This document shows positions 9,601 through 54,146 of a stretch of 62,218 bases of DNA, in pieces. Within the stretch, counting starts at the first letter, position 1, and the number at the start of each line of letters is the position of its first letter. The stretch spans positions 1-62,218 of the forward strand of contig JAKJGY010000002.1 in the NCBI GenBank assembly GCA_022704145.1, written 5' to 3'. Source of the DNA: Verrucomicrobiota bacterium. GTDB lineage: Bacteria; Verrucomicrobiota; Kiritimatiellia; RFP12; UBA1067. The position numbers were made by a program, and so were the translations under genes. The notes below the pieces were generated by a model. The model ran no database searches and was not told the origin of the DNA. It saw only the letters and a program-made list of their open reading frames with translations.

Positions 9601-11952
9601 GTGCTCTACTACAACGAGCTGCACGTCTCCACCAGCGCCCGCAACAGCCTCGGCCTCTACCGGGTCGACGGCCAGACCAACGCGCTCTGGAGCTTCCAGA
9701 CCGCCGCCGTCGCCACGGTCCGCACGCAGGAGCACGTCACGGTCACGCTGGCCGTGCCGCCCGGCGGCGGCTTCCACGACTACGAACTGGTGCTGCCGTA
9801 CGGCGACGCGGTCGACTTCCAGGGCCTGCAGGTCAACCTGGACGCCCAGTTCCAGACGCCCGCCGCGCGCCCCGCGACGCGCTACCTCGCCTATGGGGAC
9901 TCGGTCACGCACGGCTTCACGGCCAGCGACGTCGGCCGGAGCTACGCCTACCGGGTGGCCGAGCTGCGAAACTGGCAACTGGTCAATATGGGTTACGGCG
10001 GACGCGCCGCCACAGCCTCCGACGGCGCCACCGTGGGCGCGCAGGGCGCGCACGTGATCAGCGTGCTGATCGGCGTCAACGACTGGCAGGGCGGCACTTC
10101 ACTGGCGACGTACAGCAACCGGCTGGACGGCTTCCTCGCGAACCTGCGCGTGCAGCAGCCGACGGCGCCGGTCTACCTGCTGACCCCGCTCTGGGTGGAC
10201 CCGGCCTGGGATCCCGCCGGCGACGTCGAGCCGCTGGAGGCGTACCGGCAGGTTGTGCGCGACGTGGCCGCCGCCCGCGGCGACCCCAACCTCGCGGTCA
10301 TCGAAGGCCCGGCGCTGATCGATCCCGACACCGCCCTTTTCGACGCCGTGCGCGTACATCCGAACGACGCCGGCTTCGCGCAGATGGCGGCCCGGCTGGC
10401 CGCGCTGATGGAGATGGCGGCACCGGCCATGACCAAGACATGGCTCGGCGGCGCGGCGGCCGACTGGGCCGACGCGGCCACATGGACGCCCGTGGGCGCG
10501 CCCCGCGCGATCGACGCGGCGTCGCTCAGCAATTCGGCGACCGCGACGCTTACGGTACGAAGCGGCACCTCCGCAGTCGCCGCCTCGCTGTCGTTCGACA
10601 ACGCGGCCGGCACCGACGCCACGCTCGCGATCGCCGCAGGCGGCAGCCTCGCGGTGAGCGGCGGGATCGGCAAGACCGGCGCGGGCCGGGCGACGGTCAG
10701 CAACCTCACGCTCACGGCCTCCGCCACGGCCGTCGCCGTGACCTCGGTCGGGGACGACGCACGGCTGACGTTCGACGGTGTGAGCGGGCCCGGCGGCCTG
10801 GCCAAGTCCGGTCCCGGCACACTGCGCCTCGCCGGCGCGCTCGCCTACGGCGGCCCGACCGCGGTCGCGGCAGGCACGCTCGACGTCGCGGGCGCGGGCG
10901 TGTCGCTGCTGACCAACGCGGTGACCGGCAGCGGCGTCTTCCGCCACTCCGGCTGCACCACCGTGGTGGACGCGGCGACGGCCAACCTCAACAGTTTCGA
11001 CGGCCCCGTGACTGTGGACGGCGGCACGCTGCAGCACGGCACGCCCAACAACAACCAGCGCCGCGGGCTCTCCCGCGCCTCCTCCTACACTGTCAACTCT
11101 GGCGCCACAATGGTCGCCACGCGCGACGCCATGCGCGACGGCGTGCCCACGGTCCTGAACGGCGGCACCTTCAAGATGCTCAAGGGCTTCCAGTACCTGG
11201 GGCCGCTCACGCTCAACGGCGGGGCGCTCGTGACCGGCCCGGGGCAGGGCGCGCCGTACCAGGCCTTCGCGCTAGGCGGAAACGTCACGGTGACGGGCGG
11301 CCCGCCCTCCGAGATCCGCGCCGAGCCGGGACTCTACAACGGCGTGCACCTGGCCTTCAACGCGGCGGCGGGCTCGCTGCGCACCTTCCGCGTCGAGGAC
11401 GTCACGGCCGACGCGGCGGCGGACCTGACGGTCACGGCGAACCTGCTTGAAAGCTCTCACACGGGTAATCGTGCGGGACTGGTGAAGACCGGTGCGGGCA
11501 TGATGCTGCTGCTGGGCGGCACCAACGCATACGGCGGCGCGACGGTGGTGAGCAACGGCGCGCTGCTGGTCAGCGGCAGCCTGAGCAACTCGGCGGTCAC
11601 GGTCGTCTCGGGCGCGGCCTTCGGCGCGGCGGCGGCGACAGCCTCACGCGTCGCGGCGCTGACGGTGCAGGAGGGCGCCACGGCCGTGTGGCGTTACGAC
11701 GGCGCGGCCGGCGCGTCGGGCCGCATCGACGTGACGGGCGCGCTGGACTTGCCGGCCTCCGCCACGCTCGAGGTGGCCGGCGACGGGTTCCTGCGCTCCG
11801 GGCAGGCGGTGTTCCGGGCGGGCGCGCTGACCGGCGCGACCGACTTGAGCGGCTGGACGCTCACGGGCGTGCCGGACGGCGCGTATCTGGCGGTGGCCGG
11901 CAACGAGGTTTTGCTCTGGATCCGCCGCGGCACGCGGCTTATCCTTCGGTGA
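6638..11952 (+). CDS. Giant secreted multidomain protein (alpha/beta-hydrolase, CBM-like, Ig-like, LamG, SGNH hydrolase, autotransporter-associated PATR repeats), interrupted by a 1-nt frameshift near 6995
   Basis: SD GAGGAG and signal peptide in the ORF annotated 6629-7204; protein-like sequence continues in the 6892-11952 frame. Motifs: GFSLGG; FTVEAFVN..GLIDEFRL; GDSVTHG..GVND..HPND; GGLAKSGPGTLRL and GLVKTGAGMMLL. Ends RRGTRLILR. Confidence 0.75.
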
Positions 11953-49567: not shown

Positions 49568-50728
49568 TCAGCGGAGCGCGCGCTCCTCGGCGATGGTCTG
49601 CAGCAGAGCGGTGATATTCGCGAGGGGCACATCGGCCATGATCTCCTGCGAGGGGGCGATCATATAGCGTCCGCCGCGGCCGAGCGTGCGGATCACGCGG
49701 CGCGCCTCGGCGCGGACCTCGTCAGGCGTGCCGTAGGGTAGGAGCTGCTGCGTGTCGATGCCGCCCCAGAGCGAGAGGCGGTCGCCAAAGTCACGCTTGA
49801 GCGCGTCGAGATCCATACAGGGCTGAACAGGCTCGAGCATATCGAGCCCGACGTCGAGCAGGTCAGGGATGAAGGGCGTGATGTCGCCGCAGGAGTGCAT
49901 GATCATCGGCAGGCCGGCCTCCTTGAAGACCTTGAAGAGCCGGGCGATGCGCGGCAGAATCAGGCCGTGGAACTGGGCGGGCGAGACCAGCGTGCCGCTC
50001 TGGCAGCCGAGATCGTCGCCGTGGTGGCCGACCTTGAAACCCAGCTCGATCTTCTTGCGCGCCACGGTGAGCTTATAGTCGGTGATCTTGTCCATCAGGA
50101 TCGCGACCGACTCGGGGTCGGTCAGGGACTCGACCATGAACTCCTCGAAGCCCATCAGGCAGTAGGTGCGTTCATAGATGCCGAGGTAGCCCGAGGGCAC
50201 GACGAGCAGGTCGCCGGAGGCGTGGGCCGCGAGGTCGCGCCGCATGTCGTCGAAGTTGTCGGGTCGCAGCGGGTCGGGCGGCTGGTAGGCGCGCACGGCA
50301 TCGGCCACCGGCATATCGAGGAGCGCGCGGTCGAAGCGGTCGGGCAGGAACGGCTCGGCGCGCTCGTTGGCGGCGCGGTCGCCCTGCAGCGGGTGGTAGC
50401 AGGCGAAGAAGCCGTCCTCGCCGATCTTGATGCCCATGCCCCAACTGTCGTAGACCACGCCGTTGGCGCGGTCGACCTTGACGTAGCCCTTGGCCTCCAG
50501 CTCCGCCATCTTGGCGGCGTCGTTGCGGTAGAAGAGCGGCGTGTCGCAGAGGGTGAGGGAGAAGCAGATGTGGTTGTCGAGGAAGCCGTCCAGCTCGGCA
50601 GCGCCCGCGAGGCCCAGCGCGCGGGCGAGGGCCTCGTCCTTGGTGCGGTCGGCGATCGTGATCTGGCTGGGGAGGTAGTCGACAGGCCGGCCGGTGATGA
50701 CGTTGAGGGCGCGTTCTTCGCGGGTCAT
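49568..50728 (-). CDS. UroD/MtaA-fold (uroporphyrinogen decarboxylase family) protein, copy 1
   Basis: GDDLGCQSGTLVSP, MHSCGD, EPVQP, WGGIDTQ..L..GTPDEV. Confidence 0.85.
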   Translation of the reverse strand: MTREERALNVITGRPVDYLPSQITIADRTKDEALARALGLAGAAELDGFLDNHICFSLTLCDTPLFYRNDAAKMAELEAKGYVKVDRANGVVYDSWGMGIKIGEDGFFACYHPLQGDRAANERAEPFLPDRFDRALLDMPVADAVRAYQPPDPLRPDNFDDMRRDLAAHASGDLLVVPSGYLGIYERTYCLMGFEEFMVESLTDPESVAILMDKITDYKLTVARKKIELGFKVGHHGDDLGCQSGTLVSPAQFHGLILPRIARLFKVFKEAGLPMIMHSCGDITPFIPDLLDVGLDMLEPVQPCMDLDALKRDFGDRLSLWGGIDTQQLLPYGTPDEVRAEARRVIRTLGRGGRYMIAPSQEIMADVPLANITALLQTIAEERALR

Positions 50729-52035
50729 GGGGACCTCCAGTTTTCGAGGCTCTTTTTGACGCGGTTGAGGAAGGCGGCGCCGAGGGCGCCGTCGATGACG
50801 CGGTGGTCGTGGGTGAGGCAGAGAGGCAGGGACGTGCGCCAGACGGTGCGGCCGCCGCGCCGCACGGGGCGCTCCTCCGCCGCGCAGACGCCTAGGATGG
50901 CGGTCTGCGGCGGGTTGATGATGGGGGTGAAGTGCGCGATGCCGAGCATGCCGAGATTGGTGACCGTGAAGGTGCCGCCGAGGTAGGCGTCAGGCGGGAG
51001 TTTGCCGGCGCGCGCCTGGGCGACCGTGTCGCGCGCGAGGTCGGAGAGTGCATCGAGCGTCAGCCGCTGCGCGCCGCGCAGGACCGGCACCACGAGGCCG
51101 TTGTCGACCGCGACCGCCACGCCGAGGTTGACGTCCGGCCAACAGAGGATCTCACCCTGCTCGAAGGTGGCGTTAAGAAAGGGGAACTCGGCGAGGGCCG
51201 CTGCGACGGCATAGAGCACGGCGTCGTTGACGGAGGGGACGCTGCCGCCCGCGCGCTTGCGGCGCTCGCGCCAGGCGAAGAGGTCGGTGACGTCGGCGGA
51301 GAGCGCGAGGGTGGCGTCGGGGATCTCGCGGCGGCTTAGCGCCATACGCTCGGCGATGAGGCGGCGCATGCCGGAAAGCGGCACGCGGCGTGGCCGGCCG
51401 GCCACGGCACGCGTGATGTCGGCGGCGGTGACCTTGCCGCCGCAGCCGGAGCCGTCGAGCGCGAGCGGGTCGAGGCCGGCCTCGGCGGCGAGGGCGCGCG
51501 CCAGCGGGGTGACGCGGCGCGCAGCCAGCGGCGCGACGTCGCGCAGGCGCAGGGCGCCGTCGGGGTGGGAGGGCGTGACGCGGGCGAGGTCGAGACCGCG
51601 CTCGCGCGCCAGTCGGCGGGCCGCGGGCGTGGCGGGCACGCGTCCGTCGGGGGCGCGCGCGGGAGCAGGCGAGGACGATAACGAGGACGAAGGACGAGTG
51701 GCTGCTTGATCGTCCTCGTCCGCGTTCTCGTCCTCGATTCTGACGGCCGGCGAGGGTGAGGACGAAGGACGAGTGGTTACGGCCGGGGGCGTCTCGCCGG
51801 GCTGGCCGAGCCAGGCCACGGTCTCGGTGACCGGCACGGTGGCGCCTTCTGGGTGGAGGGCGGCGAGCAGGGTGCCGGAGGCCTCGGCCTCGACCTCCAT
51901 GGTGACCTTGTCGGTCTCGATCTCGAGCAGCGGCTCGCCGACGGCCACGGTATCGCCGGGGCGTTTGAGCCAGCGTCGGATGACGCCGGTCTCCATGGCC
52001 ATTCCGGCCTTCGGCATGATGACGGGTGTCGGCAT
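50725..52035 (-). CDS. Dihydrolipoamide acyltransferase (E2), single lipoyl domain
   Basis: EIETDKVTME, ATPAARRLA (two PSBD-like units), GGTFTVTNLG, PIINPPQ, DHRVIDG. Confidence 0.92.
   Translation of the reverse strand: MPTPVIMPKAGMAMETGVIRRWLKRPGDTVAVGEPLLEIETDKVTMEVEAEASGTLLAALHPEGATVPVTETVAWLGQPGETPPAVTTRPSSSPSPAVRIEDENADEDDQAATRPSSSLSSSPAPARAPDGRVPATPAARRLARERGLDLARVTPSHPDGALRLRDVAPLAARRVTPLARALAAEAGLDPLALDGSGCGGKVTAADITRAVAGRPRRVPLSGMRRLIAERMALSRREIPDATLALSADVTDLFAWRERRKRAGGSVPSVNDAVLYAVAAALAEFPFLNATFEQGEILCWPDVNLGVAVAVDNGLVVPVLRGAQRLTLDALSDLARDTVAQARAGKLPPDAYLGGTFTVTNLGMLGIAHFTPIINPPQTAILGVCAAEERPVRRGGRTVWRTSLPLCLTHDHRVIDGALGAAFLNRVKKSLENWRSP
51670..51776. repeat. GAGGAC-period tandem/inverted repeat element in-frame within the E2 linker
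   Basis: Arms 51670-51698, 51710-51736 (inverted) and 51751-51776; 19-bp direct repeat GAGGACGAAGGACGAGTGG at 51683 and 51758. Confidence 0.85.
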
Positions 52036-52042
52036 GGTGCGT

Positions 52043-53023
52043 TTAGCGTAACAGGTCGCGCAGGGCCGCGGCAATCGAATCTGTCGTGGGGACGACGCTG
52101 GCTTCGAGGGTCGGGTTGTAGGGGATGGGCGTGTCCGCGCCGCAGAGGCGGCGAACAGGCGCGTCGAGATAGAAGAAGGCGTCGGAACCGGCGACCACAG
52201 CGGCGAGTTCGCCGCCGAAACCGCCGGTCTGGCAGGCCTCGTGGACGATCAGTACGCGGCCGGTCTTGCGGGCGGAGGCGATCACGGCCTCGCGGTCGAG
52301 CGGCACGAGGGTGCGCAGGTCGAGCACCTCGGCCTCGGCGCCGTCTTCGGCGGCGAGGCGCTCGGCGGCCTCCAGGCAGCGGGCGACCATGCGGCCGTAG
52401 GTCAGGACTGTGAGGTGGCGGCCGTCGCGGCGGCAGGCGGCCTGGCCGAGCGGCACGGTGTAGTCGGCCTCGGGCACTTCGCCCTTGGTACGGTAGAGGA
52501 GCTTCTGTTCGAGGAAGACCACAGGGTTATCGTCGCGGATGGCGGCCTTGAGCAGCCCTTTGGCGTCATGCGGGGTGGAGGGCGCGACGACCTTAAGGCC
52601 GGGCACGTTGCAGATCCAGGCCTCGGGGCTCTGCGAGTGCTGGCCGGCGGCGCCGGTGCCGGAGCCGGCGGGCGCGCGCACGACGAGGGGCATGGCGGTC
52701 TGGCCGCCGAACATGTAGCGGGTCTTGGCGGCCTGGTTGCAGAGGCCGTCGAAGCAGCAGGAGACGAAGTCCGAGAACATGATCTCGACCACCGGGCGCA
52801 GGCCGGTCATGGCGGCGCCGACCGCAGCGCCCATGATGGCGGCCTCGGAGATCGGGGTGTCGCGGATGCGTTCGGGGCCGAACTCGGCGAGCAGGCCGGC
52901 GGAGACGCCGAAGGCGCCGCCGTAAGCCGCGACGTCCTCGCCCATGAAGAAGACGGCGGGGTCGCGGCGCAGCTCTTCGGCGAGCGCCTCGCGGATGGCT
53001 TGAGCGTAGGTGATTTCGCGCAT
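52043..53023 (-). CDS. TPP-dependent dehydrogenase E1 beta subunit (AcoB/PdhB-like)
   Basis: [38 protein letters not shown]-like [10 protein letters not shown]. Confidence 0.92.
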
Positions 53024-53030
53024 AGAAAGA

Positions 53031-53145
53031 TGTGGAATGATGGAGTGCTGGAAGGATGGATGGTTGGATCAGGTTCTGCAGAGAGGTTTAGGAATGATAG
53101 ACGGTGTCTTCCCATCTTTCCAATAATCCATCATTCCATTATTCC
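53031..53145. repeat. 8-nt-period GGAATnnT hairpin element, copy B
   Basis: TGTGGAATGATGGAGTGCTGGAAGGATGG ... TTTCCAATAATCCATCATTCCATTATTCC. Confidence 0.8.
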
Positions 53146-53150
53146 TTTCT

Positions 53151-54146
53151 TCAGGCGTAAACGTCGGTGAAGGCGGCGGCGGGTTCGGGGTCGGGGCTGG
53201 CCTCGGCGAAGGCGAGCGCGTCGTCGATGTCATGCCGGGCGCGGGCGGAGAGGGCGTCCAGCTCCTGCTCGGAGGCGAGGCCGCGCTCGAGCAGCCAGGC
53301 ACGCAGGCGCTTGATCGGGCAGCGGGCTTTCCACTGCTCGATCACGGCCTTGTCGCGGTAGGCGTTGTTGTCGCTCTTGGAGTGGCCCATGATGCGGTAG
53401 GTGTTGGCCACGAGCAGGCAGGGCCCCTGGGTGCGGGCGATCTCCCGCGCGCGGCGGGCGGCCTGCCAGACCGCGACGGCGTCGTTGCCGTCCGCGGACC
53501 AGCCGGGGATGCCGTAGGCGGCAGCGCGCACGGAAAGGTCGGGGACGTTGACATGGTCGCCGACGTGCATCGACATACCGTACTGGTTGTTGACGCAGAG
53601 GAAGACCACCGGGAGCTTCCAGATGGAGGCTAGGTTGAGAGCCTCGTGGAAGGTGCCCTCGTTGGAGGCGCCGTCGCCGAAAAAGCAGATCACCACGCGG
53701 TCAAGCTTCTGGAGCCGGGTGGAGAGGGCCGCGCCGACGGCGATGGGGAGCTGCGCGCCGACGATGCCGTTGGCGCCGAGGTTGCCGGCCGAGAGGTCGG
53801 CGATGTGCATACAGCCGCCCTTACCCTTGCAGACGCCGGTGGCCTTGCCGAGGAACTCGGCCATCATGCGGCGGATCTCCATGCCCTTGCCGATGCTCTG
53901 GCCGTGGCCGCGGTGCGTGGCGTAGATCAGATCCTGCGGTTCGAGCGCGGCCGTGACGCCGATGCCGGCTGCCTCCTCGCCGATGCAGAAGTGGGCGGTG
54001 CCGTGAACCTTGCCCTGCGTGAAGAGGCGCGCGGCGGTCTCCTCGAAGCAGCGCGTCTGCGACATCTGGAGGAACATGCGCAGCAGCGTGTCGCGCGGGG
54101 GCAGCGGCGCGTCAGTTGTGGTCGTGTGGGGTGGTTGGGTGGACAT
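53151..54146 (-). CDS. TPP-dependent dehydrogenase E1 alpha subunit (AcoA/PdhA-like)
   Basis: HFCIGEEA, THRGHG, GKGGCMH, GDGASNEG..NN TPP motif, YRIMGHS. Confidence 0.92.
   Translation of the reverse strand: MSTQPPHTTTTDAPLPPRDTLLRMFLQMSQTRCFEETAARLFTQGKVHGTAHFCIGEEAAGIGVTAALEPQDLIYATHRGHGQSIGKGMEIRRMMAEFLGKATGVCKGKGGCMHIADLSAGNLGANGIVGAQLPIAVGAALSTRLQKLDRVVICFFGDGASNEGTFHEALNLASIWKLPVVFLCVNNQYGMSMHVGDHVNVPDLSVRAAAYGIPGWSADGNDAVAVWQAARRAREIARTQGPCLLVANTYRIMGHSKSDNNAYRDKAVIEQWKARCPIKRLRAWLLERGLASEQELDALSARARHDIDDALAFAEASPDPEPAAAFTDVYA

Follow-up and report, generated by a model that had tools for sequence, protein, structure and literature searches.

A dispersed hairpin repeat in frame within the inter-domain linker of a bacterial E2 acyltransferase

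The stretch of DNA analysed here, called the window throughout, is 62,218 nucleotides long and belongs to a MAG of 4.57 Mb in 415 contigs, 88% complete, which we refer to as G000. On its minus strand, at 50725-52035, lies the gene for a dihydrolipoamide acyltransferase (E2), recognized from its ORF, from Pfam matches to Biotin_lipoyl, E3_binding and 2-oxoacid_dh, and from the N-termini of its orthologues. The ORF itself covers 50725-52074 (449 aa) and is open up to 52074. Because the orthologues begin with MPTPVIMPK, we placed the start, probably correctly, at the ATG at 52035. Directly upstream in the same operon, and on the same strand, are the genes for E1 beta (52043-53023) and E1 alpha (53151-54146), assigned from Pfam and from synteny with a relative's contig.

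All the features expected of the E2 class are present: PF00364, PF02817 and PF00198 all score above their cut-offs, and the ETDK and DHRxxDG motifs are intact. The lipoyl domain (51814-52023, minus strand, residues 18-87 of the 449-aa ORF; PF00364, 1.1e-16) contains the ETDK lipoyl-lysine motif. The catalytic acyltransferase domain (50737-51393, minus strand, residues 228-446; PF00198, 1.5e-69) contains the other motif as DHRVIDG. Between them lies the peripheral-subunit-binding (E3_binding) domain (51535-51639, minus strand, residues 146-180), which PF02817 matches in two stretches and which AlphaFold models as helices. The second Pfam stretch is the weaker one, and the AlphaFold model has two helix pairs; two consecutive PSBD-like helical domains follow the linker at 51400-51640 (E2 residues ~146-225). 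The linker is of the classical Ala/Pro type in a second, paralogous E2, encoded on contig C33.

The linker that joins the lipoyl domain to the subunit-binding domain is where the repeat lies. Residues 100-136 of the ORF are encoded by a segment of 37 codons, TTRPSSSPSPAVRIEDENADEDDQAATRPSSSLSSSP (51667-51777, minus strand), that falls between the Pfam matches to Biotin_lipoyl (18-87) and E3_binding (146-180). A first-pass annotation made from the letters of the window had described three GAGGAC-based arms here, in frame between the two domains, together with a perfect direct repeat of 19 bp at a spacing of 75 bp, and both the arms and their placement are borne out. Read in the sense of the mRNA, the 5' arm (arm 1, 51758-51776) is one copy of the direct repeat GAGGACGAAGGACGAGTGG. 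It is followed by a loop of 21 nt (51737-51757) that contains CGGCCGGCG, by the central inverted arm (51710-51736), by a short spacer (51702-51709) and by the 3' arm (arm 3, 51670-51701), which holds the second copy of the repeat at 51683-51701, 75 bp from the first, start to start. The central arm is (TCGTCC)x4.5 on the plus strand and encodes IEDENADED. In shuffled windows the 19-mer found a mean of 0.02 matches with up to three mismatches, and none of 100 shuffles reached two. TRF reports the same region as period-6 arrays, CGAGGA at 51670-51698 and TCGTCC at 51710-51736.

One hexamer, in its two orientations, gives both the serine run (TCG TCC) of the peptide and its acidic run (GAG GAC). 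The earlier reading of the two runs as sense and antisense of a single repeat is therefore right, with the addition that the codon phase is shifted between them. The inverted arms are complementary over 21 nt at 90%, and for the sense RNA of 51660-51790 a fold of -52 kcal/mol is predicted (z = -4.35), a stability that none of 200 shuffles equalled. As had been proposed, the central arm has two possible partners, pairing at -41.0 kcal/mol with the 3' arm and at -27.5 kcal/mol with the 5' arm. In the closest orthologue, P0002, the two pairings are nearly equal (-38.4 and -36.6 kcal/mol). At the level of the protein, the linker is predicted to be disordered: AlphaFold gives a pLDDT below 50 and no secondary structure for residues 74-114 of the 423-aa protein, which correspond to 100-140 of the ORF. 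The tryptic fragments predicted for the peptide, if it is made, are IEDENADEDDQAATR and PSSSLSSSPAPAR.

How widely is this segment shared? We collected 2046 E2 homologues at E<=1e-60 and measured the linkers of 56 orthologues in addition to those of G000 and P0002. Among the homologues the element is common only to the E2 of G000 and to P0002, which is 81% identical and comes from the assembly GCA_964399405.1; it is absent from all 56 others. In P0002 the same three arms stand in the same place, within a collinear operon of 85-90% identity. Since an orthologue at 81% identity also has the element, the insertion must be old, and G000 is not its only carrier. In a maximum-likelihood tree P0001 and P0002, the two sequences with the element, are sisters (100/100), and the surrounding P0004, P0003, P0005 and P0007 have Ala/Pro or Ala/Pro/Ser-rich linkers that lack it.

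The comparison of linker lengths alters one part of the initial description. An indel of ~35 aa relative to the orthologues had been predicted, and the segment is indeed missing from all but the closest of them; there is, however, no clean addition of 35 aa. The 56 linkers have a median length of 44 aa and a range of 41-65 (one, mis-anchored, measures 81), as against 57 aa in G000 and 67 aa in P0002. The conserved flanks QPGE..PAV and APDGRVP are kept around the element, so its 37 aa replaced ~30 aa of Ala/Pro and were not simply added. The linker of G000 is only ~13 aa longer than the median because the 37 aa took the place of the ancestral Ala/Pro core. The nearest orthologue that lacks the insert is ~68% identical, a distance at which the linkers cannot be aligned. 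Among the other orthologues, the longest correctly anchored linker, of 65 aa, is that of P0015, and P0010 (ENA sample ERZ1426815) has an odd linker, VAQVHQTDRTDRSDPTEIRGQI, that includes QTDRTDRSD and looks repeat-encoded.

Codon composition marks the segment as foreign within the gene. GC3 is 0.65 in the 37-codon insert and 0.91 in the rest of the gene, where the lowest window of 37 codons reaches 0.84. The insert uses TTA, AGA, TCA, CAA and ACT, codons found nowhere else in the E2 gene. Between G000 and P0002 the insert differs by indels of 12, 6, 6 and 6 nt, and the frame is continuous in both genomes. Its nucleotide identity (0.8-0.93) exceeds its amino-acid identity (0.5-0.7), which is not the pattern of a segment constrained as protein. 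In arm 3 a stretch of 29 nt is identical (29/29) in the two genomes, whose E2 genes differ at 17% of positions (a background of 83%). No compensatory changes were found between the arms of the two; the central arm is changed on one side only.

If the segment is a repeat, related copies should lie elsewhere in the genome. A search of G000 with the exact 19-mer, allowing up to three mismatches, was uninformative, with 9 matches against 9 for the reversed control. BLAST of the E2 region against G000 revealed intergenic look-alikes on contig C127, and a census was then made with nhmmer. The profile was built from five intergenic hairpins (the four copies of subfamily B described below and one from a metagenome), leaving the E2 sequence out. 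It matches the E2 segment (C391:51706-51774) at E=6.6e-7, and its significant matches in G000 are exactly 14 loci, the next having E=0.078. This jump means that the ordinary Ser-rich and acidic coding regions of G000 do not match. A profile of subfamily A also matches the E2 segment (E=2.2e-5). The unit that the family profiles match is arm 1 together with the central arm. The 13 loci other than E2 that carry the (TCGTCC)n..(GGACGA)n hairpin core are all intergenic; two copies of the family that appear to overlap ORFs lie in upstream ORF extensions, where the likely starts are downstream of the element. Among ~20 hexamer-type copies that we inspected, the E2 copy is the sole intragenic one. 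These intergenic relatives, with further copies in other genomes, are what the first-pass annotation had suggested looking for. Its central proposal, that a member of a hairpin family inserted in frame and was tolerated, is supported by the profile match and by the orthologues that lack the segment.

The copies in G000 fall into two subfamilies. Subfamily A has nine full-length copies of ~115-150 nt with the consensus GGTTGCGCTGAAAAAGTCGGCTCTGCCCCC-(TCGTYC)n-TCGAAAACCCCGGCGAAATCGAG-(RACGAR)n-CACGATCACAGCCCAGGAACGGCCTTTTTCAGCAGAATC. Subfamily B consists of four copies (C127:10742-10826, C253:752-841, C352:19810-19883 and C306:110-177) that are hairpin only, with the loop CGATCCGGCCGCGTTTTCG. 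Loop 1 of the E2 copy resembles this subfamily-B loop in length and in its CGGCCG core, and the arm end CCACTCGTCCTT is common to the E2 copy and to a solo copy on C127 (C127b). Rfam gave nothing at the gathering threshold in the window and nothing at E<=1 in four element loci.

Subfamily A, unlike the E2 copy, fits the definition of a MITE. The termini of subfamily A are inverted 16-bp ends, GGTTGCGCTGAAAAAG, and five of the nine copies are flanked by direct duplications of 7 bp, three of which (GACATTA, ATATGTT, CGAAGTC) are perfect and the other two of which agree at 6/7 positions. Both copies inspected in G031, another genome of the order, likewise have 7-bp duplications (ATATCTT and CAGATTC). 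Perfect inverted GGTTGCGCTGAAAAAG ends, identical to those of subfamily A, also bound an element of 2.1 kb at C88:196-2309 that encodes a protein of 531 aa with DUF772 and DDE_Tnp_1_6 transposase domains. From these domains we read the element as IS1182-like, and the MITEs of subfamily A are likely to have it as their autonomous partner. A further GGTTGCGCTGAAAAAG end was noted at C112:8655-8670. The hexamer hairpin is absent from the ends of the C88 IS; it is a separate module, found inside the MITE and also solo. Terminal inverted repeats are missing from the E2 copy. A candidate target-site duplication, the flanking 8-mers CGCCCCCG, was rejected: the two are 136 nt apart, a distance that is not a multiple of 3, and they are lost in P0002.

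The hexamer family extends beyond G000 to further genomes of its order. When public genomes were scanned with the loop of subfamily A, a match came from a MAG labelled uncultured Lentisphaerales bacterium, which indicates the likely lineage of G000. The whole E2 insert, compared with 200 genomes of the same family, gave a single partial match, in G062, ahead of the start of a gene. Metagenomes scanned with 26 nt of the E2 arm yielded one exact match, in which identity runs to 29 nt. This 29-nt arm, CTCGTCCTTCGTCCTCGTTATCGTCCTCG, complete with its TTATCG irregularity, is identical at L058:2290-2385 on the JGI contig Ga0335078_10000828. There it is part of a solo hexamer hairpin in the intergenic space flanked by sufS and a sufT-like gene, on a contig of 60% GC that is otherwise unrelated to G000. 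Horizontal spread and a sequence-specific partner are both possibilities for the conservation of the arm across such distant hosts.

A parallel case occurs in a sister lineage. The next closest genomic orthologue, at 67% identity, is that of G022, and the same position in its linker holds SEFGVRSSAFGVRVTPSF. This repeat is a copy of another dispersed element, ~95 nt long and based on GTTCGGC heptamers, for which G022 gave at least 45 matches. In translation it often appears as ..TRTPNAERRTPNAEVTD.. or, read the other way, as ..SEFGVRSSAFGVRVTPSF.. The nearest E2 relatives of the G022 protein, P0008 and P0013, lack it. One E2 linker has thus been colonised twice, independently, by unrelated repeats. 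We inspected copies of the heptamer family in G022 (loci L050-L078; examples are L060:1499-1586, L066:1495-1598, L051:1509-1589 and L054:1501-1591), and ~9 of 26 lie in frame inside genes. Four in-frame copies were placed against Pfam domain matches: one lies between HZS_alpha and FGE-sulfatase, one between cytochrome c and Laminin_G_3, one between TPR and LysM, and one in the C-terminal tail of RNase R. Behaviour like that of the Rickettsia palindromic elements (RPEs) is therefore frequent in one or more genomes of this bacterial family.

How did a palindromic repeat come to lie within the coding sequence of E2? The account that we favour, and that we think probable, is that a selfish hairpin repeat entered the linker DNA in an ancestor that G000 and P0002 share, that it is translated, that it persists in a near-neutral state and that it changes by hexamer slippage. 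A dispersed (TCGTCC)n / (GGACGA)n hairpin, of the kind whose core is found both solo between genes and as the interior of a MITE with IS1182-like ends, would have become part of the linker-coding DNA in that common ancestor. The peptide it encodes would have replaced the ancestral Ala/Pro run of the swinging arm. By inspection, the pure hexamer (GAGGAC/GTCCTC) is stop-free in all six frames and reads as Ser/Pro/Arg-rich or as Asp/Glu/Asn-rich. Since it is stop-free, and since the peptide is predicted to be disordered, the segment would simply be translated within the swinging-arm linker. Later change would have consisted mainly of the gain and loss of units of 6 and 12 nt, by which the reading frame is kept automatically. 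For this reason the preservation of the frame is not independent evidence of translation. Some observations count against an insertion: the E2 copy has neither terminal repeats nor a target duplication, it is the sole intragenic copy, and the nearest insert-free orthologue is only ~68% identical. Because terminal repeats and duplication are lacking, we can only infer the route by which the element arrived.

The same repeat origin would also fit a hairpin that is kept for a function of the nucleic acid, as an mRNA structure that slows the ribosome after the lipoyl domain and ahead of the binding domain, a site for RNase or attenuation within the operon, or a site on the DNA for a protein. We consider this unlikely. 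The three-arm layout and the strong fold have been conserved between two genomes with differences at 17% of gene positions, one arm is identical in both and recurs in an unrelated organism, and the insert is better conserved as nucleotides than as amino acids. Yet the identity of 29/29 against a background of 83% is not significant given the number of possible windows, the arms show no compensatory changes and the central arm has been altered on one side only. Most orthologues do well without the element, and it has no match in Rfam.

Might the segment have no connection with the dispersed family at all? It could have arisen in situ, by hexamer slippage and template switching at a quasi-palindrome, in which case its likeness to the intergenic hairpins would be convergence. 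TRF sees plain period-6 arrays, the indels between G000 and P0002 are whole hexamers, the exact 19-mer is no commoner in the genome than its reversed control, and no terminal repeats or target duplication mark an arrival. What makes this origin very unlikely is the irregular, non-periodic detail that the E2 copy shares with others: CCACTCGTCCTT recurs in C127b, and L058 has the 29-nt arm, TTATCG included. Moreover, the genome-wide profile search picks up no other coding low-complexity region, the codons for Ala and Pro (GCN/CCN) are an implausible seed, and the codons of the segment are unlike those of the gene around it. Least credible of all is an error of assembly, in which the contig was mis-joined or collapsed at a repeat and the element is not truly inside the gene. 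G000 is a fragmented MAG and repeats are prone to mis-assembly, but GCA_964399405.1, an independent assembly, has the same element in the same place in its collinear operon. The frame is also continuous, and both flanks belong to the same gene.

The insertion of a selfish repeat, the reading we prefer, invites comparison with known systems. RPE-1 to RPE-10 (Ogata et al. 2000, 2002, summarised in PMC10969869) are palindromic repeats of which nearly half of the copies are intragenic (PMC10969869). The E2 element is like an RPE in that a dispersed palindromic repeat of ~70-150 nt stands in frame in an intact metabolic gene, with its peptide in a tolerant part of the protein, and in that it predates the split between related genomes. 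It is likewise one of a dispersed palindromic family in a single genome (14 loci, with nine full-length copies of ~115-150 nt). It is unlike an RPE in that only one of the 14 copies in G000 is intragenic, against nearly half of the RPE copies (PMC10969869). The host also differs, being free-living, with 68% GC, and Lentisphaerales-like, and the sequence, built of hexamers, is probably unrelated. The heptamer family of G022, with its larger share of in-frame copies, is closer to RPE behaviour than the hexamer family is. The E2 element shows behaviour like that of RPEs and of other intragenic MITE-like repeats (PMC10969869). It is probably not a member of those families, and in a Lentisphaerales-like host an RPE is not expected.

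The resemblance to MITEs derived from an IS is strongest for subfamily A, which has 16-bp IS ends, 7-bp duplications, no coding capacity and a length of ~115-150 nt. The E2 copy and the four hairpins of subfamily B, in contrast, consist of the internal hexamer hairpin only, with neither terminal repeats nor duplications. REPs are normally extragenic. With REP/BIME sequences the family shares short imperfect palindromes in alternating orientation (forward, inverted, forward) and a mostly extragenic location near gene ends. RAYT-like genes, the partners in such systems, are present in G000, but none of the four inspected is flanked by hexamer hairpins. These four are full-length ORFs with PF01797 on C282, C415 and C63, together with the RAYT-like gene of the window; a further, weak PF01797 match on C232, the fourth outside the window, lies in a frame of 63 aa. 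No hexamer hairpin was found within 400 nt of the four, and no inverted repeats were found around the RAYT-like gene of the window. Three of the RAYT-like genes are preceded by repeated motifs of the GGGACAGGTAAT / GGGACAGAC type (C282:20265-20330, C415:~700-720 and C63:~10010-10125), which may be their cognate repeats.

The E2 element clearly shows, for a bacterium other than Rickettsia, that selfish hairpin DNA can become part of the gene for a working enzyme. If its peptide is made, the swinging-arm linker of E2 tolerates full replacement of Ala/Pro by a repeat-encoded sequence of Ser/Pro and acidic residues. The occurrence of two repeat families in one linker of sister lineages points to inter-domain linkers as the place where such insertions survive. 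It is also a warning for annotation: a low-complexity linker that looks odd and departs from the codon usage of its gene can derive from a repeat. In addition, the analysis documents an undescribed pair of MITE and putative partner IS, and a solo-hairpin module that is shared with the MITE.

A broader proposal would be that unrelated hairpin families of short-period tandem repeats (hexamer, heptamer and octamer) are a regular source of inter-domain linkers in this Lentisphaerales-like family, perhaps a favoured one. We regard this as conceivable though doubtful. Insertions that were favoured could act through a charge-patterned disordered peptide, or through an mRNA hairpin that pauses translation between domains. 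If they were indeed favoured and not merely tolerated, selfish repeats would systematically drive the evolution of linkers in bacteria that are free-living and of high GC content.

Hairpins are also seen elsewhere in the operon. The spacer between the E1 alpha and E1 beta genes in G000 (53024-53150 of the window) contains an octamer-type hairpin, GGAATGATGG.. / ..CCATCATTCC, of -39 kcal/mol. In the 81% relative this spacer (L037:1722-1979) is twice as long and carries a hexamer-type hairpin with a loop of ~110 nt, and the octamer element is represented by its right half only. Since the contents of the spacer differ between G000 and this relative, hairpin elements turn over within the operon.
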